Shown here: positions 4,683-50,797 of the stretch, in pieces
Position numbering within the stretch: position 1 is the first letter of the stretch
Layout of the letters: every line of letters begins with the position of its first letter
NCBI GenBank assembly: GCA_945861715.1
Contig: CAMAVK010000001.1
Location: 458,908 to 522,907 of the forward strand
Length of the DNA: 64,000 nucleotides
Direction: 5' to 3'
DNA from: Candidatus Woesearchaeota archaeon
Lineage (GTDB): Archaea; Nanobdellota; Nanobdellia; Woesearchaeales; GW2011-AR9
The notes under the pieces: generated by a model
The model's database searches: none
Seen by the model: the letters and a program-made list of their open reading frames with translations, nothing else
What the model was told of the DNA's origin: nothing
Program-made: the position numbers and the translations under genes

Positions 4683-6179
4683 GTGGGTAACATTAAATCA
4701 ACAATTTTCATCGGATTAATTATCTTATTATCTTTGGTAGGTGCGTCGCAAGTAAACGCAGCTCTCGAAATCTTAGAACAAAACGTAACTTTAGACGTTG
4801 ACTATGGCGACTTCATAAACGAAGATCAACTCACTATACGTGAAAGTTTTTCTTTTACGGTAAGAAATTCAAACAATGATGCAGCATCATTAAAATTTAC
4901 ATTCGATAGTTTACCTTCTGGCTATAACGCCTCAACAATAAATACCATCAATTTAAGTGCAGGTGAAGAACGTTCAATAACTGGTTCAATTGAAGTACCA
5001 CACACCCGCGCAACCGGTCGTTCAAATATTGGTTCTTTAGTATTACGAGATCTCAATAACGCTGAGTTAGATCGCTTAACTATTGACCAAACGACCAAAA
5101 GCATGCTTTTCATTGATAGACTAGAAGTTGATTATACTGACGTAGACGGAAACTCACAGTCCGACCGGTTTGATGCAGCTGATCAAACGCTCAATCTTGA
5201 CGAAAATGTTCGTCCCGGAAGTGAAATTACTATTACTATAACCTACAAAAATCAATTTGATCGTGATTACGATAGCGATAAATCTGTTATTGAAGATATT
5301 ACTCTTGATATAGAAGCAAGTGATAGCGACTTATTTGATGACAGTATAGATGACAATGTCGATCTTTCTGATCTGGATGCAAATGACAAAGAAGAGTATC
5401 AAATTCAAGTTAAAATCTCTGACACCATTGACGCTGATAGTTATGATGTCGAATTCACCTTAGAAGGAACTGATGGAGAAAATTTTGACCATAATGATCA
5501 AAAGACCTTAAAAATTGATGTTGAACGTCTAAGAAATGATGTTCGAGTTACCAATAGCGAAATTACCGGGCCCGTTGATAGCTGTGTCCAAAGTTTATTC
5601 TTTGATATCAGTATACAGAATTTTGGAACAAGAGATCAAAAGTATGTTGCCTTTGCTCTAACCAACACGGAGATGGGCATAAATTATAAAGTCAATGATC
5701 TCCTGCTAGAGAAATTCGATGATGACGACACATATTCCAATCATGTTGAAATTCCTCTAACTAAGACCTTGAAGGAAGGGTCACAATCAATCGATCTCAA
5801 AGTGTTCACTGATCGCGATAATCTCATTGACCAAAAAAGAATTCCACTACAAGTAACAAAGTGTACAACGGCTTCAAATACTCCTGTGCAGACAACCACC
5901 TCAACGGGTTCCAGCACGAGTGTCAGCTCTGGAAATGGAACAACTGCTGGTACAACAAGCACTAAAAACGCAACCGCAGCTCAAACTGGGGCCGGATCAC
6001 AAACAACGACTCCTTCCACATCAGATACCACTACCTCCTCTGTCCCGGTGGGAGCAAGTGTCATACAAACAGTCGAAGAACCCTACAGCACAGATGATTT
6101 CTTTGTAGGTGGCTTAATTGTTGCAATAATTGTGGTTGTGGCATTAATAGTCGTATTTTTCATACTGCTCCTTCGATAA
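4683..6179 (+). CDS. Secreted, very acidic (D/E-rich) surface protein with an S/T-rich stalk and a C-terminal TM anchor
   Basis: GTG start. Signal peptide IFIGLIILLSLVGASQVNA. Long D-rich tracts (DSDLFDDSIDDNVDLSDLDANDKEE). S/T-rich linker (TTTSTGSSTSVSSGNGTTAGTTST...). C-terminal GGLIVAIIVVVALIVVFFILLLR. Confidence 0.6.
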   Translation: MGNIKSTIFIGLIILLSLVGASQVNAALEILEQNVTLDVDYGDFINEDQLTIRESFSFTVRNSNNDAASLKFTFDSLPSGYNASTINTINLSAGEERSITGSIEVPHTRATGRSNIGSLVLRDLNNAELDRLTIDQTTKSMLFIDRLEVDYTDVDGNSQSDRFDAADQTLNLDENVRPGSEITITITYKNQFDRDYDSDKSVIEDITLDIEASDSDLFDDSIDDNVDLSDLDANDKEEYQIQVKISDTIDADSYDVEFTLEGTDGENFDHNDQKTLKIDVERLRNDVRVTNSEITGPVDSCVQSLFFDISIQNFGTRDQKYVAFALTNTEMGINYKVNDLLLEKFDDDDTYSNHVEIPLTKTLKEGSQSIDLKVFTDRDNLIDQKRIPLQVTKCTTASNTPVQTTTSTGSSTSVSSGNGTTAGTTSTKNATAAQTGAGSQTTTPSTSDTTTSSVPVGASVIQTVEEPYSTDDFFVGGLIVAIIVVVALIVVFFILLLR

Positions 6180-6217
6180 ACGCAGCATTAAAAAGCAAAA
6201 TCTATGAGGTAAATCCC

Positions 6218-9178
6218 ATGAAACATCAACTTTCCTTTATTTTCATTCTATTATGTCTTGTTTGTACTTCTGTGTATGCAGAAGTCCCTACAATTACTCC
6301 TTTTGAAAATATCTACTTTATTCAAGGTATGAGCAACACCTATCAAGTAGAAGTAGATGGTCATGGTGATCAATTAATTTACCGATTAGTTGGTGCTCCA
6401 AATGGAATGACAATTAACAACAACGGCATTATCAGCTACACTGCTAACCTTGATGATCAATTCTATTTAATAGTCGACCTCACAGTAGAAAACCAAAATC
6501 AAGAACAATCAACATTACGCTTTGTTGTAACAACGAGGTCAGCTCTCCAAATAAATAATGTCATGATTGGAACATCAGACGACGATCTTCGCCAGCTAAA
6601 TAATGGTGGCTCTAGCATTCCTTTTCATCCTGGTGAAGAGGTCTATCTTACGTTTCAATTGGATAATGCCTACACCTTAGTAAATAACCCCTATCTCGAA
6701 CACGACATTTCACCAACCATTGAATCAATTGAGTACACGCTTAGCGAACAGGTAGGGATTTCATTTTTCAATGACCATGTGAGTGTGAATCAACCAATAA
6801 GAGCCCAAGGCATGCAGCAATACATCGTAAAAGGTCGACTACCTGTTGACCTTCAACTCGGAAATTATAATATTGAACTCACTGCAACAGGGTTTGATCA
6901 AGATGTACCTGCAAACGAACAAAGGGACACATTTACATTCAGTCTCCCCATCAGACGAAATCCACACGCACTAATGCTCACACCAACAACACCAAACGAA
7001 GTACTCGATAGAGTATTAACTTGCGATGAAACTTCCCAAATAGCAATCCCAGTTACATTTGCAAATACTGGTCAAGTCGATGAATTCGTCGTTGTAACAA
7101 TTGAAGACCATCATGGCAATTTCCTTGGTGATCTGCAATACCCTATAGCTGTAGGTGATGAGACGACGCAGACTGTGGATGTATTCCTCCCACGAGAAGA
7201 TGACAACAGCGTAACTGTGTATATAGCGCGGATACAAGACCAACAGACTATTATGGATAAATACGCCTTCAGTTATAGTTCAAGCGCGTGCTCGTCATTA
7301 AGTGTTGATGGTTCAAGCCCTAACTCCAATGACCTTACCCTACGAACCGGCTCTAATCAAGGCTTTGAACTTCTTATATCCAACCCCAGCAACACACCTT
7401 ATCAAGTACAATGGCGCTACAATAATCAACTCGTAAGCAATGGCAACACTTTCAATCTTCAAAATGTTCAAACGGGAATTCATACCCTTACTGTAAATGT
7501 AATTCAAGAGGATAGTATTGTATACCAAAAAACGTGGGATATCACTGCATCCAATCTACCACTTGGCTTCGATGCATTCACTGGTCCAGCAACAACCAAC
7601 CCTGCCAATATTATCAACATTCATTCAACTCCTCTAACACTCGAAAATAACTTTGGAAAAATAGTCTTCGATGCCAACCTTGATTTAAGTAACATAGAAG
7701 ATCTCTCAAGAGTCATTTCAATTACAAGTGGAAAAGTAGCAATTGATACTATTACAGCACCTGCATTAAATCGTCCAGCTACCATCACATTGTACCGGTC
7801 CTACGCAGATCCAAAAATAATGGTACAACCTGGTTTCAACAACGGGCAACTGAGCATCTGTAATGTATGTGTCATAACTTCAAATCAAGTAAATGCACTT
7901 ACATTCCACGTTCCGAATTTCTCAACATATGTTGGGGTTGAAAACAGCGGTATCGAATTAACAATTAATGAAATTGTAGCAACCAATATCATGCCAGGTA
8001 CTTCAGGTAATACCACTATCACCATCATAAACACTGGCGCTCAAGATCTAACCAACATACGCACGACTCTTCAAAATATAAACGCTAAATACCAAGCTAG
8101 AATAATCCAACAGCCACCTGCCGTGCTACATTCAGGCGAACAAGCAACACTCACACTAAGTCTCTTCATCCCTCTAGACGAGTCAGATGCAATACATACC
8201 ATTGGTACACTTCAGTTCACTTCAACGGAATTAAGTGCATCACAGCTAATTCAAGTTGACCCCACAAGTTATATCGAAATACAAAGTATCAAAGTCAATA
8301 GCAAAAGCAATGGTGATCTCGAATTAAATTCAAACCAGATCGAGTTCAAGGTAAAGAACAATTATCCTGAAGACATGGACGACGTAACAGTTACAGTTCG
8401 CATTCTTGATGTTAATGGTGATGACCTTGAAGAAGAAGTTGACAGTTTCAAATTGAGAACTGGAGATGACAAAAAAGTCACTGTTGACTTCGACCTCTCA
8501 GGCGAAACACTTGATGAAGATAGCTATACCATTGAGATAGAAATCGAAGCCGAAGCAGATGATAACTCCAACCATGATGCCGCAACAGACTTCACTGCTG
8601 ATGTTGACCGTGATCGTCATAACGTTGTATTCACCAGAACAGATCTCTCCATATCAAAATTATCTTGTGAGATGCAAACGGCATTGTATGTTACTATTGA
8701 AAATAAAGGAGAAAGCGACGAAGATGATCTTGAAATAAGAGTTTCAAACACCAACCTTAACATCGCCGAATCAAAGCGTTCCATTGATGTAGATGATTAC
8801 AGTGGTCCAGATCAAGAATATTCCGCCATATTCCCACTTGATCTAACAGGTAAAAATATCGGTACTTACCCCATCAAAGTGGAGTTGCTTCGCGACGGGG
8901 AAGTTGACGAAACACAATCTGTAACTCTTGAGATTACCACCTGTAGCAGCGGCACAACTAAAGCTGGCAGCATAACTGTGCTTGGTGATTCCAACCGTGG
9001 TGACGCGCTGCGAAATCAACTGGATCAAGCCCTCATTCAACACCAAGGAGGATCAAATTCACAAGTGACTGCATCATTTAGAGACTCAAATGTGTACACT
9101 TTGTTCCTTGGCGGACTTGTTTTGTTTGTACTCATCGCCGTGATGTTAGGGATTGCTGTTGCAATAAAACGTAAATAG
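6218..9178 (+). CDS. Large secreted surface protein (986 aa) with a C-terminal TM anchor and short basic tail
   Basis: Signal peptide LSFIFILLCLVCTSVYA. Multiple beta-rich repeat modules. C-terminal LFLGGLVLFVLIAVMLGIAVAIKRK. Confidence 0.6.
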   Translation: MKHQLSFIFILLCLVCTSVYAEVPTITPFENIYFIQGMSNTYQVEVDGHGDQLIYRLVGAPNGMTINNNGIISYTANLDDQFYLIVDLTVENQNQEQSTLRFVVTTRSALQINNVMIGTSDDDLRQLNNGGSSIPFHPGEEVYLTFQLDNAYTLVNNPYLEHDISPTIESIEYTLSEQVGISFFNDHVSVNQPIRAQGMQQYIVKGRLPVDLQLGNYNIELTATGFDQDVPANEQRDTFTFSLPIRRNPHALMLTPTTPNEVLDRVLTCDETSQIAIPVTFANTGQVDEFVVVTIEDHHGNFLGDLQYPIAVGDETTQTVDVFLPREDDNSVTVYIARIQDQQTIMDKYAFSYSSSACSSLSVDGSSPNSNDLTLRTGSNQGFELLISNPSNTPYQVQWRYNNQLVSNGNTFNLQNVQTGIHTLTVNVIQEDSIVYQKTWDITASNLPLGFDAFTGPATTNPANIINIHSTPLTLENNFGKIVFDANLDLSNIEDLSRVISITSGKVAIDTITAPALNRPATITLYRSYADPKIMVQPGFNNGQLSICNVCVITSNQVNALTFHVPNFSTYVGVENSGIELTINEIVATNIMPGTSGNTTITIINTGAQDLTNIRTTLQNINAKYQARIIQQPPAVLHSGEQATLTLSLFIPLDESDAIHTIGTLQFTSTELSASQLIQVDPTSYIEIQSIKVNSKSNGDLELNSNQIEFKVKNNYPEDMDDVTVTVRILDVNGDDLEEEVDSFKLRTGDDKKVTVDFDLSGETLDEDSYTIEIEIEAEADDNSNHDAATDFTADVDRDRHNVVFTRTDLSISKLSCEMQTALYVTIENKGESDEDDLEIRVSNTNLNIAESKRSIDVDDYSGPDQEYSAIFPLDLTGKNIGTYPIKVELLRDGEVDETQSVTLEITTCSSGTTKAGSITVLGDSNRGDALRNQLDQALIQHQGGSNSQVTASFRDSNVYTLFLGGLVLFVLIAVMLGIAVAIKRK

Positions 9179-15828: not shown

Positions 15829-16080
15829 ATGCCTGCAGTACTTGATGGACTATTGGATAAAAAGACCGCATCATTACTGAAAGTTCTTTTAAAAAATAAA
15901 GACGAAATATACCATCTCCACTCTCTTTCTAGGGCGTCAAAAGTACCCGTCTCCTCTACTTCTAGAATTGTAACTAAACTAATCAAATTAGATCTGATAA
16001 CAACAAGAAAAGTCGGCAATATGGTCCTATTCCAAGCATCAAATTCTGAAAAAGCAAAATTGGTGGGTGATTTGCTATGA
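15829..16080 (+). CDS. Small winged-helix (MarR/ArsR-like) transcriptional regulator
   Basis: 83 aa. Helix-turn-helix region IYHLHSLSRASKVPVSSTSRIVTKLIKLDLITTRK followed by a beta-wing (VGNMVLFQ). Its TGA stop overlaps the start of the giant surface-protein gene (ATGA). Confidence 0.5.
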   Translation: MPAVLDGLLDKKTASLLKVLLKNKDEIYHLHSLSRASKVPVSSTSRIVTKLIKLDLITTRKVGNMVLFQASNSEKAKLVGDLL

Positions 16081-19000
16081 GTCAATCCACTAAGTCTACC
16101 AAAACCGTACTCCGCCTAAGTTTATTCATAATCATCCTCCTCCTCACATCAGCAACCGTACTCGCAGCTACAAAACCTATTGCTGGCTATATTTTCAAAA
16201 CAGACGGAACAACAGTGGCACCAAACGCGAGCGTACGAGTCTACGTAAACCAAGCTTCCGTGAGTGCAGCAAACCCGTGCTACACAAACCCTGCTGTTCT
16301 CTCCGGTGTAGATGGTTCATGGTCTACTAATCTCGCAAATTTGAAGCGAGCAGATAATGGGAATGATTGCTCTGGATTTTGGGCAACAGGGGATGCAATA
16401 TGGGCAAACGCCATTGGCCAAAACGTAACTCCTGAACACGGAAACCTTTCCACTGCAAATACAACCATCGCATCAGGAACCGGACTCCAGTATCTCTCAA
16501 ACGTTAGTCTCCCTGCAGGGCCGGATCGAATCGCACCAGTAATTCGTCTCATCGCCCCACCAAACGCCACCAACAACACCAACGGCTCCATCCTCTTTCA
16601 ATACAATGTAACCGATGACAGTCTCATTAGTAATTGTAGTGTACTATTCAACGGTACAATAAATACGACAAATACCTCTATAACCAGAAACATCACCATG
16701 AACTTCAGCCTCACCAATATTGCTGATGGCCACTATAATTGGTCTGTTGGATGTTATGATAACGTTACAAATTATAACACCAGTATTGAGACATGGTTCC
16801 TAAACGTATCGAAAGTAGGTCATTATAACTTAAGTCTTGTAACCCCGACGTCCAACACCAGCGTTGAACAGAATCAATTTTTTACTTTTACTATGCAAGT
16901 GAAATGTTATGATGGAAGCTGTGGTGATACAAATGCAAGTCTTGACCCTATTATTCTTGGTGAAGATCAAACAATTGTCTCCCAGAACAAATTTCACTCA
17001 CAAGGATTCTTTGAAAAAATATGGTCTTACTTCGCTGAATTCTTTTCAGGGAATCTCATCACCGGGCAAGTAACAGGTGCGCTCGTTCCCATGGTACCAA
17101 CCACACCATTTTACACTAATATGTCAAACCCTATGAACCTAAGTAATGTAAGTTGTCTAGCTAATATGGCTCAAAATAGCGCATGCAACGTAACATGGTA
17201 TGTCAACGCGTCAGGTCCTGTTGGGACCGTAGCAGAGTTCTGGGCATTTACTAACTCTACCATATACACCGCGCTGAACAATGAGACTCCACATTTATTT
17301 ATCAGTATAGTTGAATCAATCCCACCTGCTATTATTAATTACACTCCTCGAGGAGAGACTTTTAATGTCACCCAATTAATAGAAATCAGTCTTAACACCA
17401 CCGACCCCCAAAACATATCTTTTGTAAAAGCAAACATTACATATCCTAATGCAACCGTTGACCTAATTAATCTTACTCGTGTGGGTACTACCGATAAATA
17501 CAACAGCAGTTACACCATCCCGCCAAGAACTGGGTTCTACCTAATCAAATTTTGGGTAAATGATACAGGAAACAACATCAACGGAACAACTCAAACAAAT
17601 TTCACAGGTCAAGATATTGTCCCTCCTAACGTTACCACCCTCCTCCCTGCAATTTCAACAAGCTACAACACATCCCAAATAATTCAAATATCACTTAACG
17701 CAACTGACGTAACAAATATCAGCACAACGTTTGCCACCATCACTTCACCCAACAGCACCAAAACAAACGTCACCCTAAGTCGCCAAGGCACTACATACAA
17801 ATACAATGGAACCTACACTGTTCCTCCCCGCATTGGCACATTCAACATTACCTTCTTTGCAAATGATAGTAAAAATAATATCAACAATAGTGAAGTTTCA
17901 AACTTCACGGTACTCGATGGCGAATATCCTCGCCTAGCAACCATTGTAGAAGCCCCAACTGACCCGGCAACATACGTATATAATCAAACATATTTTTTCA
18001 ACATTACTATCACTGACAATATTGGAATAAACAATGTTATCATGCAATTCAATAACACAAATTACACCGCAGAAATAAAAAATCAAAGCACCATTTTTCA
18101 ATTCAACATCTCAGATCTCGCAGCCGCAACATACAATTATGTCTGGTATGCAAATGACACCAGTGGCTACATCAATTCTACTTCCTCTACCTACACCATC
18201 AGCAAAGCATCATCAACTGTAAATCTAACTTTATATGGAAATGATAGTAACACCAATATCAGTGTAAACACACCAGTTAACCTAAGCGGGGTACGAATCG
18301 CCGGTGATGGACAAATAGAATTACTTCAAAACGGATCCGTTCTCTCACTTGGCAATACAAGTACCTCCTCGAACCAAACCTATACCACGCTAACTTCATA
18401 TAATATCAGCATTCGACACAATTCTACTCAAAATTTCACTGCAAGTCAAGAAGATCATGTCCTCGCAATAAAGGATTATATTTCACCAAACGTCACCCTT
18501 GTAACCGTAAACGCTTCAAGCGTCAATCAAACGCAACATGTCAGAATAAACGCAACGATAATTGACAATCTTCAAATTGATTCCATTAAAACACAAATTT
18601 GGTTCCCCAACGGATCGGTCCAAAATTTCACCATGAATAACATCAGCTCTTCGTTTAATACCACCTATATCACAATTCTCACATCAAACATAGGAAACCA
18701 CACTGCACAAATTCTAGCTAACGATACCTCCGGAAATAGAAATACCACTCAAAACGTAAGCTTTTGGGTGTATGACATAACTCCACCTGCAGTTACTTTA
18801 CTCATACCCGCAAATCAAACTACTCTAGGAAATGGGACTACTATCCAATTGTCATCAACAACGACAGATAATATCGCAATATCGAGTACATATGCAAATA
18901 TTACTTACCCAAATAATTCCATTCAATCTATCCCCCTCACACTTACCACCGCATCAAAATATAATTCATCCTTGCTTCTAGGTCAACAAACAGGAATTTA

Positions 19001-21080
19001 TCTGATGCAAATATTTTCCAATGATTCAAGTAACAACATCAATGCAACAGAACAAGTATTGTTCTATGTGAACGAGACGGACGGTCCTCCAAATGTAACT
19101 CTAGTTGCAGTAAACGTATCAAGCGTTAATCAAACGCAGCATGTCAGAATCAATGCAACTGTCATGGATGCAATAAGTGTAGATACCGTTAAAACGCAAA
19201 TATACTTCCCTAATGGCTCAATCCAAAATTTCACGATGAGTAATGTGAGCTCCTACTATAACACCACCTATATCACAATTCTCACATCAAACATTGGAAA
19301 TCATACCGCGCAAATTATTGCAAACGATACCAATGGAAATAGAAATACCACTCAAAACGTCACCTTTTGGGTATACGACATCACACCACCCAATGTCACA
19401 GCTTTAATCCCGACAAATCAATCCACTGTATTCACCGGAACCAGCATTCAAATCGCAGCGAATGTAACAGACAACACTGCTCTCTCAACAGTATACGCAA
19501 ATATCACCTATCCAAATAGTTCAATCACCTCATTGCCCTTATCGTTAGCAACAGGTGCCAAATACAACTCTACTCTCACCTTGGGTTCATACAATGGAAC
19601 CTACACACTCCTTATCTTTTCCAATGATAGCAGCAATAATATCAACGCCACCGAACAAACACAGTTCTTTGTAAACACCTCAGATAATGCGCCAGTTGTA
19701 ACCTTGCTAAACCCTGCAGACAGCTATACGAATACTACTTCTACCTATCTTGAGATGAACTTTTCATGTTCTGCAACCGATGATTACGCCCTACGCAATA
19801 TCTCATTATACCTAAGCAATCCATCAAACACCAATTTTAGTCAGAATCAAAGTACTCTTCTTAATGGTACAACTAACTCTACTTCATGGCTACTTAATCT
19901 TACCCAAGGCTCCTTCACCTGGAACTGTCAAGCAATTGACAACAGTACTCAACTCGATTGGGCATCAAACCGCAGTATAACCCTATCTGCCCCTTCTTCC
20001 TCAAGCAGCAGTTCAAGCTCCTCCGGTGGTGGTGGTGGAAGTAGTTCAAGTACATCGAGTAGTAGTGGCGGGCCTATACCACAAAAAAGAGTAGATGTAA
20101 ATGCAACCCCGACATGTCTATGGAATGAAAGCATCATCGCAGGAAATTGCATGTACAATGAAAGTAATGTATTGCTAAATGCTTCACCTACTGAGATCCC
20201 AATAAACTCAAACCAAGGAATATTCAATTTAGTGGGAAGAGCATTTGATATAAACATCCATGCCTTTGGTCTAGACCTTAGTCTACTTTACATTGCCTTG
20301 ATGGTATTCCTCTTGGGCTTATTAGTGCTTTTACTGACCAGACGAAAACGACCATACCTTATTATTCAAGCACCAACCATGGCCGCCCCCGGTGACACCT
20401 TTGATGTAAACGTCAAACTAGGTAATGATTATCGGCCAGTTGTATTAAGAATTTGGAGTATTTTCGTTCCTGAGGGAGAAGTTGGTCTGCTAAACATCAA
20501 AAATATTATCGGCAAAGGCCCAACCTATCGTCTCGAAGTAGACCGATCAGAAATAAGGCGTGGCACCATTCCTGTGGCTATACCAGCACAGTTTATGCCG
20601 GGGAAATATCGAATCATCACGTGTGTGCGGTGGGAATACAAGAAGACAAATGAGCCAAAATCCCTTGTAGAAAAAGGAACAACCCAAGAAAAAATAAAAA
20701 TAACTGCTCATCAAAATAAAATAACGGTTACCCAAACTAAGTTACCTATCCCACCTGCGCTTCTAGTATTAGTGGGTAAACGAAGTCGGCTTCCAGAAAA
20801 TATCGCAATCAACTTACAAACCATGCGTGAAAAGCTCGCGCCAACTGCAAACATTGTTGAACTCGCAAGAACTCGTGAAGAAATTGTACTACGTATGCAC
20901 CAAGCAGAGAAAATGCATAACTTGCGTCTCAAAAAGTTAGAAATCGAAGAGGATATGCGACACACCGAAGAAGAAGGAGTACTACAGCTTCAGTTAACGA
21001 GACTAAATAGTACATTAACTAAGAATGCGGCACCCGTGCAACGCTCAACACAAACACCCACAAAAAGGGACAGAAAGTAA
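16077..21080 (+). CDS. Giant (1667 aa) heavily sequon-decorated surface protein: signal peptide, conserved N-terminal module, about 12 beta-sandwich repeats, poly-Ser/Gly stalk, single TM, ~260-aa cytoplasmic tail with a coiled coil
   Basis: Signal peptide LRLSLFIIILLLTSATVLA. N-terminal module homologous to the 13622 protein (ANPCYTNPAVLSGVDGSWSTNLANL...CSGFWATGDAIW...SGTGLQYL). N-x-S/T sequons occur every ~5-10 residues. Stalk SSSSSSSSSGGGGGSSSSTSSSSGG. TM LLYIALMVFLLGLLVLLLTRRKRP. The cytoplasmic tail ends in a K/E/R-rich coiled coil. Confidence 0.7.
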   Translation: MSQSTKSTKTVLRLSLFIIILLLTSATVLAATKPIAGYIFKTDGTTVAPNASVRVYVNQASVSAANPCYTNPAVLSGVDGSWSTNLANLKRADNGNDCSGFWATGDAIWANAIGQNVTPEHGNLSTANTTIASGTGLQYLSNVSLPAGPDRIAPVIRLIAPPNATNNTNGSILFQYNVTDDSLISNCSVLFNGTINTTNTSITRNITMNFSLTNIADGHYNWSVGCYDNVTNYNTSIETWFLNVSKVGHYNLSLVTPTSNTSVEQNQFFTFTMQVKCYDGSCGDTNASLDPIILGEDQTIVSQNKFHSQGFFEKIWSYFAEFFSGNLITGQVTGALVPMVPTTPFYTNMSNPMNLSNVSCLANMAQNSACNVTWYVNASGPVGTVAEFWAFTNSTIYTALNNETPHLFISIVESIPPAIINYTPRGETFNVTQLIEISLNTTDPQNISFVKANITYPNATVDLINLTRVGTTDKYNSSYTIPPRTGFYLIKFWVNDTGNNINGTTQTNFTGQDIVPPNVTTLLPAISTSYNTSQIIQISLNATDVTNISTTFATITSPNSTKTNVTLSRQGTTYKYNGTYTVPPRIGTFNITFFANDSKNNINNSEVSNFTVLDGEYPRLATIVEAPTDPATYVYNQTYFFNITITDNIGINNVIMQFNNTNYTAEIKNQSTIFQFNISDLAAATYNYVWYANDTSGYINSTSSTYTISKASSTVNLTLYGNDSNTNISVNTPVNLSGVRIAGDGQIELLQNGSVLSLGNTSTSSNQTYTTLTSYNISIRHNSTQNFTASQEDHVLAIKDYISPNVTLVTVNASSVNQTQHVRINATIIDNLQIDSIKTQIWFPNGSVQNFTMNNISSSFNTTYITILTSNIGNHTAQILANDTSGNRNTTQNVSFWVYDITPPAVTLLIPANQTTLGNGTTIQLSSTTTDNIAISSTYANITYPNNSIQSIPLTLTTASKYNSSLLLGQQTGIYLMQIFSNDSSNNINATEQVLFYVNETDGPPNVTLVAVNVSSVNQTQHVRINATVMDAISVDTVKTQIYFPNGSIQNFTMSNVSSYYNTTYITILTSNIGNHTAQIIANDTNGNRNTTQNVTFWVYDITPPNVTALIPTNQSTVFTGTSIQIAANVTDNTALSTVYANITYPNSSITSLPLSLATGAKYNSTLTLGSYNGTYTLLIFSNDSSNNINATEQTQFFVNTSDNAPVVTLLNPADSYTNTTSTYLEMNFSCSATDDYALRNISLYLSNPSNTNFSQNQSTLLNGTTNSTSWLLNLTQGSFTWNCQAIDNSTQLDWASNRSITLSAPSSSSSSSSSSGGGGGSSSSTSSSSGGPIPQKRVDVNATPTCLWNESIIAGNCMYNESNVLLNASPTEIPINSNQGIFNLVGRAFDINIHAFGLDLSLLYIALMVFLLGLLVLLLTRRKRPYLIIQAPTMAAPGDTFDVNVKLGNDYRPVVLRIWSIFVPEGEVGLLNIKNIIGKGPTYRLEVDRSEIRRGTIPVAIPAQFMPGKYRIITCVRWEYKKTNEPKSLVEKGTTQEKIKITAHQNKITVTQTKLPIPPALLVLVGKRSRLPENIAINLQTMREKLAPTANIVELARTREEIVLRMHQAEKMHNLRLKKLEIEEDMRHTEEEGVLQLQLTRLNSTLTKNAAPVQRSTQTPTKRDRK
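18485..19690 (+). repeat. Near-identical 603-nt (201-aa) tandem duplication inside the giant surface-protein gene
   Basis: Unit 1 (NVTLVTVNASSVNQTQHVRINATIIDN...ITILTSNIGNHTAQILANDTSGNRNTTQNVSFWVYDITPP...FSNDSSNNINATEQ) is repeated immediately as unit 2 (NVTLVAVNVSSVNQTQHVRINATVMDA...ITILTSNIGNHTAQIIANDTNGNRNTTQNVTFWVYDITPP...FSNDSSNNINATEQ). Nucleotide strings such as caagcgt(c/t)aatcaaacgca(a/g)catgtcagaat(a/c)aa(c/t)gcaac recur at 18519 and 19122. Confidence 0.85.
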
Positions 21081-25860: not shown

Positions 25861-25960
25861 TTCCTTAGCCACAGATTTTCCTTATTATCTGCTCTCAATC
25901 TCTTTATCTACCTCTAATTTAAACTTAAACATAAGTATGAAGAGAAGTAAGAAAAATGAG

Positions 25961-26072
25961 CGGGCCCTGAGGGATTTGAACCCCCGACCTCGTGGTACCT
26001 ATCAATTACTCATTCCTTTCGGATTAGCAATGTTAAGAGCCACGCGCTCTAGCCAGCCTGAGCTAAGAGCCC
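25961..26072 (-). tRNA. tRNA-Lys (anticodon CUU) with a ~37-nt canonical-position intron (after nt 37). CCA is not encoded.
   Basis: Minus-strand read GGGCTCT-TA-GCTC-AGGCTGGCTA-GAGC-G-CGTGG-CTCTTA[intron ACATTGC...GATAGGT]A-CCACG-AGGTC-GGGGG-TTCAAAT-CCCTC-AGGGCCC-G. All four stems pair, U33 and A37 are present, and the T-loop is TTCAAAT. Exons are at about 26034-26072 and 25961-25996. Confidence 0.85.
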
Positions 26073-26969: not shown

Positions 26970-28145
26970 TTAAATAGACTTCAAATAATGTTCCAAGAAC
27001 GTCTCTGTAAACCGTTGCCGATGCGGCTCAAACACTTCAGCTCCAGACTTATTCTCCCCCCTCATACAAAAATGCCGTCGTTCAAAAAAAGTTTCAAGTG
27101 CAGTATGAGCATCCTGAACCACATCGTAAAGATTAATCAAAGTACTTATTTCTAAATGTAAGATGTTCTCCAATGAAGACAGAGTACGAACACCAAATAA
27201 ATTTCTTGGGTCATCTTGCGTCAGTTTTTTAGCTATTTTTATCTTTTGAGTCCTAATCAAATACTCTGTTTGCAACGCATGTAAACGCACAAACGCAGCA
27301 TCATAAAGTGGCGTGCCTCTATTGCTAATTAAAGAGATAGTCCTCTCTTGAAAATCTAATTTTTCTTGCAGCTCCAATAGCTTACGTTTATCAAACATAT
27401 CTTCTTCTATTAATTCAAACAACCTTGCCGTTCCAAAATCAATCACTTTTCGAGTTCCCTTAAAGTTAGACCGAAACTCATCCATACAATGACCATGATT
27501 ATAATTAATACCGAGCCCCGCAAGATCCGCATACGTTCTTGCACATTCTTCAACAATAGAACCCATCGCAGCACAATAGTGATCAAGCCGATCGGATTTT
27601 GAGTCTAGGGTTGGCAAAGTTTGTTTCGAGAGTAACTCTTCTGCATAAAATTGAGAACCAAGATGAAGTACCTTGGGCCCTATTTTACCACTTACAATCT
27701 CAAGCACTTTTTTCTCCATGGATTGATTATATTTGTCATAAGGTTTTACAACAAACTGTCCGCACGATGCACTAACGACAAGCGGAATCCTCCCACTACC
27801 TCGAACCAAACGAGCTGCATGTCCACGCCGCTTCTCAAACGCCGTTTGTTCTCGCATAAAATCAACCTGACAAAATCCCACACCCATCTCGACAAGAAGT
27901 AACTCGGCTTCACGAAAATACGCATCACTTACTTGAACATAATTTGGAACATAAACCTTATCCTGCATATCCTGATACAACTCATCTTCTGTTCTTCTAC
28001 ATTTGAACAATACTCCTTGCGGTGGTCCACGTTGATTCCCATTTGTAAGCAAAGTGTGAGTCTCCCGTGTTCGACCATATTGTTCCACATAAGTCAAACC
28101 TTGAACACCTACCATTGATCGAATCACAAGAGGTTCTGCAGTCAT
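26970..28145 (-). CDS. Divergent protein-kinase-like (ePK-fold) protein, paralogue A
   Basis: beta3-Lys-like QFVVKPYD. alphaC-like VLEIVSG. Catalytic-loop-like CMDEFRSNF (D...N spaced as in HRDLKPxN). DFG motif VIDFGTARLF (compare DFGLAR) 16 residues after the catalytic Asp. A unique ~140-aa N-terminal domain. Overlaps the next gene by 4 nt. Confidence 0.5.
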   Translation of the reverse strand: MTAEPLVIRSMVGVQGLTYVEQYGRTRETHTLLTNGNQRGPPQGVLFKCRRTEDELYQDMQDKVYVPNYVQVSDAYFREAELLLVEMGVGFCQVDFMREQTAFEKRRGHAARLVRGSGRIPLVVSASCGQFVVKPYDKYNQSMEKKVLEIVSGKIGPKVLHLGSQFYAEELLSKQTLPTLDSKSDRLDHYCAAMGSIVEECARTYADLAGLGINYNHGHCMDEFRSNFKGTRKVIDFGTARLFELIEEDMFDKRKLLELQEKLDFQERTISLISNRGTPLYDAAFVRLHALQTEYLIRTQKIKIAKKLTQDDPRNLFGVRTLSSLENILHLEISTLINLYDVVQDAHTALETFFERRHFCMRGENKSGAEVFEPHRQRFTETFLEHYLKSI

Positions 28146-31660: not shown

Positions 31661-33538
31661 ATGGCTCTTACTAGTTCAGATATGTACACAATTCTTGGTT
31701 TAGAGCCTGGTTGTACAATAAAAGATGTACAACAAAGAAGAAGAGTACTTCAACGAAAATATCACCCTGATCAAAATCCAAACGACCCGGAAGCTGAAGA
31801 GCAAGCAAAAAAAGTAAACAACGCTGCAAGCGAACTTGAAAGAATTCTCACCCAAAGTACTACAGTACCCCCCGCACCAGAGCATAGTACACCAAGACCA
31901 TCTATGGGTAGCATTGCTCAAAGATTAGCAGCAAAAGTAAAAGCGGAAAAATCACCGTCAACTGACCATTCCTCGTTTAAAAAATACTCTCCCCCCCCCG
32001 TCAACGTTACTCGGGACATACCCCATCCTTCGCCTGCATCAAGCGAAAAAAGTATGTTTCAACAAAGACTCAACGCACCTCCCAGCATACGCGAAAATGC
32101 AGGCACAAATGCGGGAGGAAGAATAATTCTGGGTAACATCAATGAAAGTTATCGAGAGGTCTATTTTAGTCTTGAAGATAATTTTGCAAAAGCAGCTAAT
32201 CAGTATTTATTCAATATGCAAGGGACATCCGCATCAACAGTGTATGGAGAGTTACACCATCTCGATTCAGATCTTCTTATCTGCAGCTCTATTTTAGATG
32301 AGGTCTACTTAAAGAAATTTTCAAATAGCTCCCTAGAACGACGACAAAAAATAGTACTTCCATTAGTAACCCCAAAAACTGATCAATTAAAACAATTAAG
32401 TCTTGAGGATCTCATCATCGCCTTTGGAACTACTATCGCGCTTATACCTCATCCCAACAGAAATCCAATCTCCTCTCAATATGAGCAATCATTTTGGACA
32501 ATCTATAATCACATCACAACGAATATGAGAAGTGCTGAAATAGAAAATACACCCTATCTCCATCAACTAACAAATCTTGCGGGGACCATTGTTAGGTTAA
32601 GTACGGACCCCAAAATTCGAAAAGAGCTCACCTCCTTTTTACCTGATCAGCATTCGCTATTATCCCAAACACTTAATGCTATACTCCCTGTGAGTACAAA
32701 TATCTATACATGTATAACACTATTTTCTAGCTTATCAAAAGTAGCCACTAACCATACATATCTTCATTGGAGCGAAAAAAACGTAAAAGTAACCAAAACC
32801 GCCGTGGCGTTCATTAAATCCCAAGAATTAACTCTTAACCAACATACCCCTGATAACGTGCCAACACAATCGATATCACCTGATCAAAAGTGGCAAGTCA
32901 TCTGCGAAGCTACTGAATTTGTAAATGATTATGACCTGGGATTATCCAAAAACTACTACAGTACCTGGGAAGCTACTATAACCAAACTCTCCTCCTTATA
33001 TTTTTCTCCGGATTTGGAAATTCTGGTTCCACTCATTTTAACTCTCAGCGATGCAAGCCATAGGTATGAACAAGTACGATACCCTGCAAATCTCGAAGAG
33101 GCAATCACAGCGTTAACCATCTTATTACCCGTATACCAACACAAAACGGGTATAATTGAGGAAGCTTCCAAAGGTCTGTATGAATTAAAAAGAGACGCAC
33201 GTGGCAAAAAAAGCCCCCATTATACTGTCACCGCGCGTGTTGCCCGAGCAGTTGAATATATCTCCTATTGTATTGAACAATGCAATCAATATCCACACTT
33301 AGAAAATAATCTTCCTCAACTAACGGAAATTTTAGGTGGATTTGCAAAGAGTCGGTATTACCATGAACCACACCAATCTCAAAAAGTACGAGAAAAAATA
33401 GCTCCCCCAACTGACCACACCACTCAGTTAATCTATGGACGTTTAGAACAAGTTCAAACCAAACCACACGATAAAAGAACACTTTCAACTGATGATATTC
33501 ATTATATCATTGATACCTTTGTTGCAAAATTCAAATAG
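31661..33538 (+). CDS. J-domain (DnaJ-like) protein with a large unique C-terminal region (625 aa)
   Basis: N-terminal J domain DMYTILGLEPGCTIKDVQQRRRVLQRKYHPDQNPNDPEAEEQAKKVNNAASEL with the HPD tripeptide. No zinc-finger or DnaJ C-terminal domains. Confidence 0.55.
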   Translation: MALTSSDMYTILGLEPGCTIKDVQQRRRVLQRKYHPDQNPNDPEAEEQAKKVNNAASELERILTQSTTVPPAPEHSTPRPSMGSIAQRLAAKVKAEKSPSTDHSSFKKYSPPPVNVTRDIPHPSPASSEKSMFQQRLNAPPSIRENAGTNAGGRIILGNINESYREVYFSLEDNFAKAANQYLFNMQGTSASTVYGELHHLDSDLLICSSILDEVYLKKFSNSSLERRQKIVLPLVTPKTDQLKQLSLEDLIIAFGTTIALIPHPNRNPISSQYEQSFWTIYNHITTNMRSAEIENTPYLHQLTNLAGTIVRLSTDPKIRKELTSFLPDQHSLLSQTLNAILPVSTNIYTCITLFSSLSKVATNHTYLHWSEKNVKVTKTAVAFIKSQELTLNQHTPDNVPTQSISPDQKWQVICEATEFVNDYDLGLSKNYYSTWEATITKLSSLYFSPDLEILVPLILTLSDASHRYEQVRYPANLEEAITALTILLPVYQHKTGIIEEASKGLYELKRDARGKKSPHYTVTARVARAVEYISYCIEQCNQYPHLENNLPQLTEILGGFAKSRYYHEPHQSQKVREKIAPPTDHTTQLIYGRLEQVQTKPHDKRTLSTDDIHYIIDTFVAKFK

Positions 33539-33550
33539 AAAAAAGGAATA

Positions 33551-35056
33551 TTATGCATTACTTTCTAAAGCTCCCTTAGCTCTTCGCCGAAATACACCCA
33601 TACCCATTGATGCCATCTGAGATACTGATGCTGGAACTTCTACATTCAATCCGCGCAATATTTCTGCTGCCTGAGCTGCTTTTCGAGCTTTAGCAAAATC
33701 AACCGGTGCCGCAGCAAGTGCATAACGCGCCTCATCAATGAGTTCTCGCAGTGGTTCACCAACTTCATCAGCGACAAGTTCCGCAACATCTGATACCGGA
33801 ACAAGCGCTGTACTGACATCTTGAGAACTTGAAATAGCAGAATGCTCATACCCAAGCAACGCAAGCGCCTTATGAGCACTTCCAATTACTTTGGTATCGC
33901 CACCTTGAATAGATTTCACCACAGGTCCAACATGTGTAAGAGCATCAAAAGCCGCCTTTCTATTCTCACCCAAATCATATTCTAGGCGAGTAAGTAAACT
34001 CGCAAAAAAAGTATCTGTGTACGGTGTAATCTCTATAACATTATGTCCTCTATCTAATCCCTCAGATTCCAGGAATCGAACTGGTGGAGCACGTTTATTT
34101 ACTCTGCCTCGAGTGGCACTGGCTGGACCTTGTTTTTGAGGTGTATAATTTTCATTAATCAAATATAACAAACGACTCTCAAGCGGACCAACATCAAGTC
34201 GTTCCCCTACTTCTCTCTAACTTAAATCACGTGCAAGGCCAACAAGACCTGGGAGAATTTGTCCATATGTTCTCATCTCGGAACCAACAGTATACATCTC
34301 TTGACGTAGAGGTCTCATAACAAAATCAGCTCCACTCACACCACTATTAAAAAGATTACCAATTCGGCCACTATAATGATGCGAAATAGCTTCTGAACCA
34401 CGTGATCTTTTAACATACTGATTGTGATGATGTGCATTTGCTTTAGCTTCAACGCGTTCAACATAATATTCTAAACTCTTCTCCATTTGGAGCGCAATAG
34501 CAGTACAATCGCGACCTCCATACGCCGCTCGAATTTCTTCAAAAACGGAGTCATCCAATGCAGGGGCCAACTCAGAATCCTTTTCATACAAATCGATGAG
34601 TGATGAAACATCACCAGCACGAAGAACATCTGTGGCGTAGGTTAAAACACCTGTTAAAATAAAATCTCGTCTTGCATCTCGGCCTAGAGAATTAAGAAAA
34701 CCATCATCTAAACCCCACTTTTTCTCAAGCTCTCGTGTATCCATCTGATTATACGCAAGATGCATTGCAACAAATGGTGCAAGAACAGGACTTATATGTT
34801 TAGATACAAATACCCGTGAATTTCCATCTGTATCACTGTCAGAATAACCTATCTTACTATGACAAATATCACTCAACGCAGTTTGAGGTACAATATAATA
34901 TGAAATTTTCTCTTCACCAACAGTGGTTGTCCAAGGTTTTGAATGTTCTACAATCTCATCCGTAGAATATCCTACCTGTTGAGTTGGTATAAGCTTTAAT
35001 TCCAGCGTAAATGTCATACTACCCTCTAATCGGCTTTTATTTAATAATCTTATCAC
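33551..35056 (-). pseudogene. ~500-aa conserved-looking hypothetical gene interrupted by a single in-frame TAG; alternatively a stop-codon readthrough gene
   Basis: Track ORFs 34217..35056 and 33551..34171 lie in the same frame, separated only by TAG (...GLVGLARDLS*REVGERLDVGPLESRLLYLINENY...). The downstream part has no ATG or RBS of its own; the track 'M' is a TTG. Confidence 0.45.
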
Positions 35057-38191: not shown

Positions 38192-39274
38192 ATGATCTAC
38201 GCTACCCTCACCCAAGAAAACCGTACAGAGAACTCGTTTAGTTTAGAAGGAAACACTGCAATTGGTCGCAAGCTCCTTCCGGATAAGGACTTATTCGAGT
38301 TATGGGAACGAAGAATAACCTCTTCCAAGCACAAAAATAATGGTGCCACACGCATGGCGCCCATTTCAGTTACAGAATTACAACATCAATATTCTCAAAA
38401 AAATCTCGATCTCATAATCAGCGACAATATTGACGTATCGCGTCGTCATCTCCTATTTTGTGTGCCTAACTGGGGAATGAATGCCTATCACGTAATCGAT
38501 TTATTCAGTTATTATGGCACCACCGTAAACGGCGAAAACTTAACTCCTGCGGTGCCTAAAAAGGTAAGCCATGGTGATAGAATCACAATTCTAGGCAAAA
38601 CTGAAATCCCTTTTATATTCAAAGAAGTAGAACGCGTTACAAAGTATGAAGCAATTATTATCGCGAACCCAGACGGGACCTTAGACTGTAATGAGCCTAT
38701 CGCAGCGGAACTAGAAGATTTACTTCTCAAACGTAATTTCAAAGTAGACACATTAAAATCAAATGTTCAACTTAAACAAGTAACAAATAGTATAGCACAA
38801 AAAGCGAGATCATTACGGTCGCACGACTATTTATTATTTCTGTATCTTGGGCATGGATCAAAAAACGGCGAATTACGTTTTGCAGATAATGGTTTCGTGC
38901 ATGCCTCAAATTTATACTCCTCACTAAGTACTGTTCCCGCAAAAAAAATCATTTTATTAGATTGTTGTTATGGGAAGAATTTTCTCATTCCTGAGATTCC
39001 TCTGAACTCAGCTGTTGCCGTAAGTACATCGAGGCTAGATCTATCTTACACCAATACGTTTACCAAGGGATTAATTCGACGATTACAAGACCCGAGGGGG
39101 GGTTATTTTGAGCGTGTGATTGATGATGCTTGCCATTATGCCGAAGTAGAATTACGTCTATGTGGGATGGAACCCGGAACAAAAGCCTCAATGGTCACTT
39201 ATTTTAATACAGCAAGAGATGAAGATCGTGAACAAGCTCGCAAAGATATGAATAATTTTATTCATCAAAAATAA
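38192..39274 (+). CDS. FHA domain - caspase-like (peptidase C14, metacaspase/orthocaspase) fusion protein
   Basis: N-terminal FHA signatures: NTAIGRK, VSRRHLLF, GTTVNGENL, GDRITILG. C-terminal C14 catalytic dyad: His in LFLYLGHGSKNGELRF and Cys in KKIILLDCCYGKN (compare the DCCHSG of metacaspases). Confidence 0.65.
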   Translation: MIYATLTQENRTENSFSLEGNTAIGRKLLPDKDLFELWERRITSSKHKNNGATRMAPISVTELQHQYSQKNLDLIISDNIDVSRRHLLFCVPNWGMNAYHVIDLFSYYGTTVNGENLTPAVPKKVSHGDRITILGKTEIPFIFKEVERVTKYEAIIIANPDGTLDCNEPIAAELEDLLLKRNFKVDTLKSNVQLKQVTNSIAQKARSLRSHDYLLFLYLGHGSKNGELRFADNGFVHASNLYSSLSTVPAKKIILLDCCYGKNFLIPEIPLNSAVAVSTSRLDLSYTNTFTKGLIRRLQDPRGGYFERVIDDACHYAEVELRLCGMEPGTKASMVTYFNTARDEDREQARKDMNNFIHQK

Positions 39275-39488: not shown

Positions 39489-40040
39489 ATGAACGACAAC
39501 GGACAACATATATCATTAATTTGGCAAAATAACCCTAAAATCATCCTTCCTGAACTAAAAAATCAGTGGGAAACGGCAATTTCACATGCCACCTCACCTG
39601 AAATTCTTGCTAGATTAATTGGCTATGCAACCTTATGCGAACGAAATTTCAACGCTACTGAAGAATACGTACGAACGCATGACCTCACTCATCCGCGTGC
39701 CCTTGATGGAACAACTTTCATCACCGCTCCAACACTACTCAATTTATTTCCAAAGGATCAAAAACCAAATTACGAATCTCTCACCTCTACATATGGCGTA
39801 GGAAGTAATGGTGTGTGCGAAATGACTTTTATGATACTATCAAATCCATCAGGTGATGAAATGCATCTAGAAGCTCGTTTACAGTTTGACACGGATGCAA
39901 GAAATCTTCCATTGGAAGGAAGAGATCAACAGTATCGTGCACTTGCCTCAGTATTATTTGGGGAAAAACTTCCTCAGGCATTGTATACTCTACGAACCCC
40001 CCCCCCTCCGCCTACAAAAAAAAAACTTCTTGAAAGTTGA
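39489..40040 (+). CDS. Hypothetical protein ending in a poly-Pro/Lys tail
   Basis: ORF. C-terminus RTPPPPPTKKKLLES. Confidence 0.25.
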   Translation: MNDNGQHISLIWQNNPKIILPELKNQWETAISHATSPEILARLIGYATLCERNFNATEEYVRTHDLTHPRALDGTTFITAPTLLNLFPKDQKPNYESLTSTYGVGSNGVCEMTFMILSNPSGDEMHLEARLQFDTDARNLPLEGRDQQYRALASVLFGEKLPQALYTLRTPPPPPTKKKLLES

Positions 40041-40085: not shown

Positions 40086-41330
40086 ATGATAGGTTTGGAT
40101 TTAGTGCAACGATTACTCATTGCCCTAGCTCTTGGAGCACTTATCGGACTCGAGCGAGAATACGCAACCAGTAAATCCCGAGTCAACGCCTATGCGGGTA
40201 TTCGTACATTCCCACTCATTGCCATGTTTGGCGTTCTCGCCGCATATTTTGGAGATCTCTACAGCCAATGGATATTTCTTGCTGCCATGCTTTTAATAGG
40301 ACTCCTTGTCATTACGGCATACTATCTCATCTCCGCACATTCACATCAAAATTACGGCGCAACATCAGAAATAGCCGGCTTACTAACCTTCTTCATTGGT
40401 GTTCTCGTCTATCAAAACGAAACCCTACTCGCAACTGTCATAACCATCATCATGACTGTCTTATTATATATGCGATCTGTCTTACACACCTTTGCTCATA
40501 AAATCCGCCAAGCTGAACTCACCGACACACTCAAATTTGCCATCATCGCATTTGTTATTCTTCCTTTCCTTCCGGACAAAGGATACGGTCCGCATGAAAT
40601 ATTCAATCCCTACCTTGCGTGGTTAATGGTCGTATTCATCTCCGGCATTTCCTTTGTAGGGTATTTTGCCATGAAATGGTTTGGTGAACGTGGCATTGCT
40701 TTAGCAGGAATCCTCGGCGGCCTCGTATCCAGTACTGCCGTAACAAGCAGTTTTGCGGATCGTAGCAAGAAAGAACAAAAAGTTTACTTAGCTCTCGTGC
40801 TTGGTGTCATCTTAGCTAATGTACTCATGTTTGGCCGAATAATCATAGAAGTATTTGTTCTAAATCCCCCGTTATTGCCCTATGTCATCGTACCTATTGG
40901 TCTCCTCGCTATTATCACTCTTATCTTTAGTTATTTCATTTGGGAAAAAGCAAAGAAAGTCAAAGGAAAAGTTCACCTCACATCGCCTTTCACCCTCACT
41001 CCCGCATTAAAATTTGGATTCATCTTTGCTGCGGTGCTCGCTTTAGCAAAACTAGCTGACATCTATCTCTCTTCAAAAGGAGTATACTTAGTAAGCATCA
41101 TCTCCGGAATTGCTGATGTCGATGCAATTACTGTCTCCCTCTCCCAACTTGGTGGAAAAAGCATGGCGCTTGAAACGGCAAGAAATGGAATAATCATGGC
41201 CGCCCTCACCAACGTCGCAGTAAAAGGAGGTATTGCCTTCTTTATGGGTGGAAAACAATTTGGAAGAATAATTGCTGGCTTTTATGCAATTCTTATCGTA
41301 CTAGGCGTAATATTTTTGCTAGTTTTCTAA
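40086..41330 (+). CDS. MgtC/SapB-family integral membrane protein with a DUF4010-like C-terminal half
   Basis: N-terminal MgtC signature LLIALALGALIGLEREYATSKSRVNAYAGIRTFPLIAMFGVLAAY. About 10 predicted TM helices. GTG/ATG start. Confidence 0.5.
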   Translation: MIGLDLVQRLLIALALGALIGLEREYATSKSRVNAYAGIRTFPLIAMFGVLAAYFGDLYSQWIFLAAMLLIGLLVITAYYLISAHSHQNYGATSEIAGLLTFFIGVLVYQNETLLATVITIIMTVLLYMRSVLHTFAHKIRQAELTDTLKFAIIAFVILPFLPDKGYGPHEIFNPYLAWLMVVFISGISFVGYFAMKWFGERGIALAGILGGLVSSTAVTSSFADRSKKEQKVYLALVLGVILANVLMFGRIIIEVFVLNPPLLPYVIVPIGLLAIITLIFSYFIWEKAKKVKGKVHLTSPFTLTPALKFGFIFAAVLALAKLADIYLSSKGVYLVSIISGIADVDAITVSLSQLGGKSMALETARNGIIMAALTNVAVKGGIAFFMGGKQFGRIIAGFYAILIVLGVIFLLVF

Positions 41331-42432: not shown

Positions 42433-43632
42433 ATGAAAAAGGTGGTTGATGCTGTTATAATTATTATACTTCTATTATCACTCACATCCATCGCACTAGC
42501 TGACACCTATATCAGTGGAGTTTTTCCCACTATCAATAGTACCAACATCAACGCGTTTCAAGTCAATGGAAATGCAGCACAAACCGGAAGTGTACTCCGG
42601 CTTACTCCCGCGTCTAACAATCAAGCAGGTAGTGCATTTTGGAAATACAAAACGGATTTTCCTGCCAACCGCTCATTTGCAACTTATTTCTCATTTCAAA
42701 TAACAAGCACGGGTGGCGGCGGAGCTGACGGATTAGTCTTTGTCATACAACCCGATTCAAATACGGCTGGATCTTCAGGAGGCGGCCTTGGATTCTCCGG
42801 CATACCAAACGCATTTGGTGTCGAATTTGATACCTATCAAAACGGTGACTATGGTGATCCGAACGGGAATCACATTGGTATTGATTTAAGCCCGGGTGGT
42901 TTGGGCAGCGTTACTTCTGTAGCCACTGTTACCGTTGACTCAATCAACTCCTCGTGGTCTCTTGAAGATGGGGCAATATATCACACCTGGGTTGAATATA
43001 ACGGGAGTACCCAAAATATTACTATTCGCTTGAACCGCAACAACAATACTCGTCCAATAAATGCAGTATTAAATTACACCACAAACCTCTCCAATGTATT
43101 TGCACAGCAAGCGTACGTCGGCTTTACTGCTGCTACTGGCGGTGCCTACGAGAATCACGATATAAACAGCTTCTTCATAAATAATAACTATCTCTCTGAC
43201 GGAATAAACATTAATACGACCACTTATCAACCCTATGCATACAGGCTACTATTAAGCCAAAGTCATTTAAACGTCTCCGCCGATGGATACTCCGTCTCCG
43301 CTATAACCATCAACGCAACCGATCTTGATGGAAACTTATTACCCACTCAAAACATTTCTTTTACAACAACCTTGGGAAACATTATGCCTTTAGGGGATAA
43401 ATATGCTTCAAGTGGTTTAACTAATAGCACAGGTCAATTGTATCCAGTCTACGCTAGTTCCCATCTACCTGGAACCGCAACTATCACTGCCTCCGTCCCA
43501 GGTGGAGCATATAATATCACTACTGTGACTTTTTTAAATAGTGGTGCAACTGTTCCTGAGTTATCAACTATAGCTCTATTCCTCATCATCGCATCTGTTT
43601 TCTCTGGGTTCTTTTATATACGCACAAAATAA
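42433..43632 (+). CDS. Secreted surface protein with an N-terminal L-type (legume-lectin-like) lectin domain, a Big-like domain and a C-terminal TM anchor
   Basis: Signal peptide IIIILLLSLTSIALA. Legume-lectin signature blocks FQVNGNAAQTGSVLRLTP...NQAGSAFW...FATYFSFQITSTGGGGADGLVFVIQP...GGGLGFSGIPNAFGVEFDTYQNGDYGDPNGNHIGIDL. C-terminal ELSTIALFLIIASVFSGFFYIRTK. Confidence 0.65.
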   Translation: MKKVVDAVIIIILLLSLTSIALADTYISGVFPTINSTNINAFQVNGNAAQTGSVLRLTPASNNQAGSAFWKYKTDFPANRSFATYFSFQITSTGGGGADGLVFVIQPDSNTAGSSGGGLGFSGIPNAFGVEFDTYQNGDYGDPNGNHIGIDLSPGGLGSVTSVATVTVDSINSSWSLEDGAIYHTWVEYNGSTQNITIRLNRNNNTRPINAVLNYTTNLSNVFAQQAYVGFTAATGGAYENHDINSFFINNNYLSDGININTTTYQPYAYRLLLSQSHLNVSADGYSVSAITINATDLDGNLLPTQNISFTTTLGNIMPLGDKYASSGLTNSTGQLYPVYASSHLPGTATITASVPGGAYNITTVTFLNSGATVPELSTIALFLIIASVFSGFFYIRTK

Positions 43633-50113: not shown

Positions 50114-50797
50114 CTACTTAAACAACTGCATCACATATTTCTTCGAACCAATATACTCTTGATCCATAATCTCTCGAACTCGAGCTAACTCCATTGCAGG
50201 TTTATACACTCGTTTAGAACTAAGTGCATCATAAATATCCGCGCATGCAAGCATTTCTCCCAAGCTCAAATTAACCGCGTTGGTTTGCCTACGTTCCAAA
50301 CTCCAGTCCCTTCGATCAGACTTGGCTCGAGCATCCACCGGAACCATCAGTTCACGGTTTCTCCTTTCCTCGAGTCGACGATCATCTCCACTACGAGGAT
50401 ACGATGCAATTTGATATTCATGATGACTCACAACAATTTCTCGTACATCTTGTTTAACTCCAGTAAGAATCATAAACCCAAGTCGGGCATGAGATTGCAT
50501 CACTTTTCGCTCCGCTTCATCAAGTGGTCATGCTTTGCACAGTACACAGCCTGGAATATCTTTTTTTCCCACATCATGTAAAGTACCTGCTTCACCAATG
50601 TTTCTAAGCTGCTCATCACACAAATGATTACGCACCCCCAGATACATACTCAAACGTCCAACTCGAACCATATGTTCATAACTATCTTGATGCACTGCTC
50701 GAACCTCCTCTAAGTGTTCTTTAACCGTTTTATCTTCAAGAATGGAAGCATACATAGCAGTAACACGTAATGGAAGTGTGAATTTGTCTCTTGTCAT
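50114..50797 (-). pseudogene. HD-GYP-like (HD superfamily) phosphohydrolase interrupted by one in-frame TGA
   Basis: Upstream piece ...LHDVGKKDIPGCVLCKA, then TGA, then in the same frame PLDEAERKVMQSHARLGFMILTG...VVSHHEYQIASYPRSGDD. This matches the HD-GYP consensus HDIGK..IP..IL.KPGKLT.EEF..MK.H...G.....HHE..DGSGYP, with the stop sitting where the KPG glycine would be. Confidence 0.5.

Follow-up and report, generated by a model that had tools for sequence, protein, structure and literature searches.

A single in-frame TAG codon divides a gene on the minus strand of the 64,000-nucleotide stretch of woesearchaeal DNA analyzed here (the window). The question is whether this codon has put an end to the gene, whether it is an error of the sequence, or whether functional protein is made in spite of it, either in two pieces or by decoding of the stop. 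The initial annotation described two open reading frames (ORFs) lying in the same frame and parted by TAG alone. Translation of 35056..33551(-) bears this out, since it gives a single open frame with one internal stop (TAG 34219..34217, 'cta' on the plus strand, codon context AGT TAG AGA) and no frameshift. In the list of ORFs, the frame appears as 34217..35056, 279 aa from a GTG, and 33551..34171, 206 aa from a TTG.

The interrupted gene and its family

The GTG at position 35056, which had been taken as the start codon, gives way to ATG 35017. This ATG is probably the true start because the N-termini of the family match MTFTLELKL and because a GAGGG sequence is found 4 nt upstream (Table 1). 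From ATG 35017, the frame counts 488 positions: 266 codons precede the TAG and 221 follow it. The apparent start of the downstream half is indeed TTG 34171, as first proposed, and the only ATG codons of this half are close to its C-terminus.

Table 1. Position and strand of the features discussed in the text; numbering is that of the window unless a locus is named.
Feature	Position	Strand	Basis
N-terminal part, 266 codons (ATG to last sense codon)	34220..35017	-	ORF/translation, family alignment, codon log-odds
Putative Shine-Dalgarno-like motif GAGGG, 4-nt spacer to ATG 35017	35022..35026	-	sequence
Premature in-frame TAG	34217..34219	-	translation and family alignment
C-terminal half of the ancestral gene, 221 codons, containing VGPLESRLLYL	33554..34216	-	open frame, homology, codon log-odds
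Original TAA terminator; the convergent J-domain gene ends 13 nt away	33551..33553	-	sequence
TTG, first in-frame start-type codon past TAG, within VGPLESRLLYL	34169..34171	-	ORF list/translation
Convergent gene for a 625-aa J-domain (DnaJ, PF00226) protein	31661..33538	+	Pfam; homology along the whole length
HD-GYP-like phosphohydrolase gene with in-frame TGA 50530..50528	50114..50797	-	translation, Pfam HD_5/HD
Tail-to-tail pair, window	31661-33538 with 33551-35017	+ and -	
Tail-to-tail pair, L082	5245-8258		
Tail-to-tail pair, L083	506-2762		
Tail-to-tail pair, L085	6001-9003		
Tail-to-tail pair, L092	57-2307		
Large orphan ORFs and ORFs with signaling domains	16077-21080, 6218-9178, 42433-43632, 38192-39274 and 52840-54000	+, +, +, + and -	

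The family to which this gene belongs becomes visible only in an exhaustive profile search. Such a search over 1.84 billion representatives gave 43 family members, with 26 at E <= 1e-30; the majority are single proteins of 430-490 aa that cover the whole profile. The word-indexed protein search gave one homologue, P0001 (450 aa, 27% identity), which runs unbroken over both halves of the gene. When the TAG is read through, the sequence aligns in one segment across the stop with more than 25 full-length homologues, residues 5-475 matching for instance residues 6-443 of P0007, and the 266 N-terminal codons match the first 247 or so residues of the full-length members. Relative to these homologues of 430-490 aa, which match the gene before and after the TAG, the stop is premature. 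An intact homologue was also found at 5245..6600 of the metagenomic locus L082, the sole match of the metagenome scan, and a scan of genome contigs with the family motif gave no match.

The initial annotation had called the gene conserved-looking, which is only partly right. The nearest relative of the window protein is only about 29-35% identical, and neither Pfam nor NCBIfam, nor PADLOC, has a family for this protein or for any of 36 family members. The named members are hypothetical proteins of Candidatus Woesearchaeota. Judged from these sequence matches, the gene is a member of a narrow, uncharacterized orphan family of DPANN/Woesearchaeota. Two of its uncharacterized woesearchaeal members, HIH11627.1 (P0047) and MBI5390277.1 (P0042), share with the window gene a tail-to-tail arrangement with a J-domain gene. 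Their identity to the window protein is about 25-32%; P0047 is unbroken, and P0042 is frameshifted at another site. A sequence profile search of the PDB gave insignificant matches, the best at E = 0.017 to a coiled-coil region of PtuA. An AlphaFold2 model of P0001, built with the family alignment, has a mean pLDDT of 89.5 and a pTM of 0.86, which suggests one integrated, well-defined fold. Foldseek found no match to it in the PDB at E <= 1e-3.

The downstream half has all the features of a coding sequence. A run of 221 codons free of stops has a probability of 4.7e-7 at the base composition of the window, where 33 of 6662 inter-stop intervals are that long. In-frame codon usage gives log-odds of 0.23 bits per codon for the N-terminal half and 0.255 for the C-terminal half, as in genuine genes of the window, and the two remaining frames are strongly negative. 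These values show that the downstream half did not stay open by chance. Moreover, the best-conserved motif of the family, VGPLESRLLYL, lies 10 codons past the TAG and is intact, with the same sequence as in P0001.

The stop itself falls at a variable position of the family. As to which residue aligns with it, a check that had been proposed at the outset, the alignment of 36 sequences places TAG at a variable column (with residues such as P, T, E, N, G, C, and R) within the pattern hLxxL-x-[stop]-hxxGxxhxV-GPLESRLLY. The column corresponds to residue 248 of P0001, in a loop that the AlphaFold2 model places between a helix (236-246) and a strand (254-257). The homologues run through it unbroken, and none of the 35 has a stop there.

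Nor does any homologue end naturally at this point. The sole candidate, P0029 (256 aa), stops at precisely the TAG column, but it matches residues 1-256 of P0047 (465 aa) with 100% identity, and P0047 continues past the end of P0029 with an AGT codon; by this comparison, P0029 is a contig-end fragment. P0036 and P0040, which could pass for split members, derive from one gene of a single MAG that is broken over the ends of two contigs. Another member, P0042 (L083/L084), carries a frameshift about 35 codons upstream of the stop column of the window. The break lies at about positions 480-520 of L083 (GCA_016219835.1, JACRKL010000040.1) and is present in both the NCBI MAG and the Logan assembly (L084). 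Since both the site and the kind of break are different, P0042 seems to have been damaged independently or to be misassembled. Thus, no family member is naturally split at the stop of the window, the short ones being either contig-end fragments or this frameshifted gene.

Stop codons of the window and a second interrupted gene

The use of stop codons was considered within the window. Among its 57 non-overlapping ORFs of 100 aa or more, the final codon is TAA in 34 cases, TAG in 17 and TGA in six, so that TAG accounts for 30% and TGA for 10% of these terminators. In the 16 other ORFs ended by TAG, the next stop follows after 1-75 codons, as compared to 221 here. The convergent J-domain gene also stops at a TAG, and its C-terminus is typical of its homologues. 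TGA acts as a stop in an ATGA stop/start overlap at 28142-28145. TAG is thus a normal terminator here, and the window bears no sign of an alternative genetic code: reassignment throughout a genome is not what one sees where both TAG and TGA are normal terminators.

The marks of programmed read-through are missing from the site as well. The stop is not conserved, it stands in a TAG-A context that is the commonest among the true TAG terminators of the window, and the RNA around and after it folds no better than shuffled sequences (z = -0.31). The window encodes no suppressor tRNA, its sole tRNA being an intron-containing tRNA-Lys(CUU), and no pyl element (pylT tRNA-CUA, pylS or pylBCD). By Pfam and NCBIfam, the protein is neither a methylamine methyltransferase nor another known pyrrolysine protein, and a literature search on DPANN archaea and pyrrolysine returned nothing relevant. 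A scan for sigma-70 promoters and terminators is not informative for an archaeon.

The tRNA-Lys(CUU) gene lies at 25960-26072 (-) and has a 37-nt intron at the canonical position of the anticodon loop; it is not a suppressor. Default ARAGORN missed it, and it was found by Rfam (50 bits) and by ARAGORN with introns enabled. The presence of such an intron-containing tRNA indicates that the window is archaeal.

A second gene of the window is interrupted in the same manner. The TGA-interrupted HD-GYP gene that had been reported along with the TAG is real, and the Pfam HD_5/HD match extends across its TGA. In the solved HD-GYP proteins 4mcw and 5z7c, the corresponding residue is the Gly of the conserved motif 'KPGKL', and this alignment fits a GGA to TGA substitution. 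The base that follows is a C. The two interrupted genes are unrelated and 16 kb apart. They are the only single-stop interruptions within coding ORFs in the 64 kb, one by TAG and one by TGA; the two other single-stop pairs given by the scan are antisense to real genes. Another candidate for an interrupted HD-GYP pair, 39489-40040 with 40086-41330, was rejected because two stops lie between the ORFs, which are unrelated. As the two stop codons differ and the genes are unrelated, mutational decay fits the two interruptions better than a single recoding mechanism.

Origin of the stop

We favor a recent nonsense mutation, with a probability of about 0.7. TAG 34219-34217 would have arisen by a base substitution in a gene that, until recently, encoded a single protein of about 487 aa. 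Read by the release factor as an ordinary terminator in this archaeon, it would end translation from ATG 35017 after 266 residues and leave the 221 C-terminal codons untranslated apart from background read-through. According to the model, the shortened product would be devoid of nearly half of the fold. Because the cut falls in a loop ahead of a β-strand of one compact fold, this product would probably be non-functional or impaired. The locus would then be a young pseudogene, or a truncated, loss-of-function allele fixed in the sequenced population, and the downstream half, having had too little time to decay further, would still look coding. The preservation of the C-terminal half, taken alone, is equally expected of functional read-through or of a gene working in two pieces.

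The situation resembles that of nonsense (unitary) pseudogenes of prokaryotes, in which a single premature stop, also used as a normal terminator, interrupts a frame supported by homologues; here, in addition, a nearby gene has the same kind of lesion. It differs from them in that we infer the loss of function, and in that the nearest relative is too distant to date the event or to reveal relaxed selection on the downstream half.

An improbable alternative is that the gene functions in two pieces. The 266-aa product would work alone and/or the C-terminal part would be produced by reinitiation at TTG 34171, so that the split would be tolerated or even adaptive. The perfect preservation of the C-terminal half and the position of the stop in a loop between secondary-structure elements would agree with this, as would a weak GAGAG located 4 nt before TTG 34171 and the fact that P0042, of the same family, is also broken. 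However, this TTG lies inside the most conserved motif, so that a C-terminal piece started there would lose VGPLESR. In addition, no other member is split at this point, the break in L083 is of a different kind and at a different site, and the pTM of 0.86 points to one integrated fold. Split protein genes are a known feature of DPANN archaea, Nanoarchaeum equitans being one example. There, as here, a single ancestral protein of a DPANN-type archaeon is spread over two ORFs, and the break falls between structural elements. However, the halves in N. equitans are separate genes, usually distant and having their own starts, whereas the two parts are here contiguous, in frame and separated by one stop, and the downstream part has no credible start that would keep the conserved motif.

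Of similarly low probability is the view that the organism has a sense codon at this site and that TAG entered the consensus as a sequence error, a minority variant or an amplification variant. This view can draw on the fact that a single organism, represented by one or two samples, supplies all the evidence, on the occurrence of two nonsense codons within 64 kb of a compact genome, and on the undecayed state of the C-terminal half. It is weakened, as compared to its standing among the initial options, by the recurrence of the stop. Three contigs (NCBI/ENA and Logan) have exactly this 266-aa truncated product; they probably represent one or two samples and are therefore not independent isolates. 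The 89-aa truncated HD-GYP-like product is called on the same three contigs, so that the TGA is reproduced too. Over 6.8 kb, an independent Logan assembly of ERR3719144 matches the window with 100% identity, and its contig continues unbroken through the site for 124.5 kb. Since the same product is found on three contigs, including this independent assembly, an assembler artefact behind the TAG is unlikely. Furthermore, consensus substitution errors are rare as compared to indels, and neither interrupted gene has a frameshift. As evidence against a sequence error, the agreement between assemblies is strong but not decisive.

Programmed decoding of the TAG is less probable still. By means of pyrrolysine, a suppressor tRNA or read-through dependent on context, it would yield the full-length protein, alone or beside the short form. 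The intact C-terminal half, with the conserved motif just past the stop, would be expected in this case, and in the second interrupted gene a C comes after the TGA, a context known as leaky in other organisms; the tRNA search, moreover, covered 64 kb of the genome. Against it stand the use of TAG and TGA as terminators, the variable stop column without a stop in any homologue, a protein outside the known pyrrolysine families, and the lack of structured RNA after the stop and of a suppressor tRNA in the window. Also, one mechanism would not cover two interruptions that use different stop codons. The pyrrolysine genes mtmB, mtbB, and mttB of Methanosarcinales and some bacteria likewise have an in-frame UAG followed by an intact frame, in archaea as here. 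However, homologues of those genes share the column of the UAG, and pylTSBCD is present in the genome, whereas here the column varies and is free of stops in the homologues, the protein belongs to none of those families and no pyl element occurs in the window. The unbroken homologues, the two terminators and the single tRNA of the window thus agree with the original ranking, in which recoding came last. Equally remote is leaky termination that is tolerated or exploited, with a useful amount of read-through at both the TAG and the TGA-C of the HD-GYP-like gene; a short and a full-length product would then come from each gene, its C-terminal half would stay under selection, and this would be a case of regulated stop read-through in an archaeon devoid of pyrrolysine machinery.

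The J-domain neighbor and the meaning of the locus

In every locus recovered, members of the orphan family are arranged tail-to-tail with a gene for a protein of 476-625 aa having an N-terminal J-domain, and the two genes often overlap. The loci considered for this pairing are the window, L082, L083/L084, L085-L088, and L092 (Table 1). Their J-domain proteins are homologous to each other along their length. The association suggests that the gene pair is a lineage-specific module linked to chaperones.

Other genes of the window give an idea of the organism. The window encodes ribosomal protein L1, P0 with an RL10P insertion domain, PAC2, and a DUF1947-PUA protein, which, like the intron-containing tRNA, mark it as archaeal. 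Its proteins are singletons at 90% identity. Among species-representative genomes, MutS reaches at best 52% identity, which means that the organism has no close representative among them. The DNA would accordingly come from a deep-branching archaeon, probably of DPANN type, that has no close relatives with sequenced genomes. The closest MutS is on L002 (CAZXEM010000079.1), a 4.7-kb contig binned as Methanosarcinales, and the other matches are bacterial (41-45%); this archaeon may therefore carry a bacterial-type MutS, or else the L002 contig may be mis-binned. Large orphan ORFs are common, two of them (1667 aa and 986 aa) having no Pfam match. Eukaryote-like or signaling domains are found in a protein with legume-lectin and Big_1 domains, in a protein with FHA and caspase domains, and in a Ser/Thr protein kinase. 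This content resembles the surface and signaling repertoire of a DPANN-type archaeon.

For annotation, 34217..35056 and 33551..34171 should be merged into one disrupted gene with its start at ATG 35017, instead of being listed as two hypothetical proteins. A gene disrupted by a nonsense codon is an ordinary phenomenon, which as it stands matters little. As a by-product, the analysis brings out a small unnamed family of DPANN/Woesearchaeota, with a confident predicted fold that matches no solved structure, and its pairing with J-domain proteins offers a lead to what may be a chaperone-linked module particular to this lineage.
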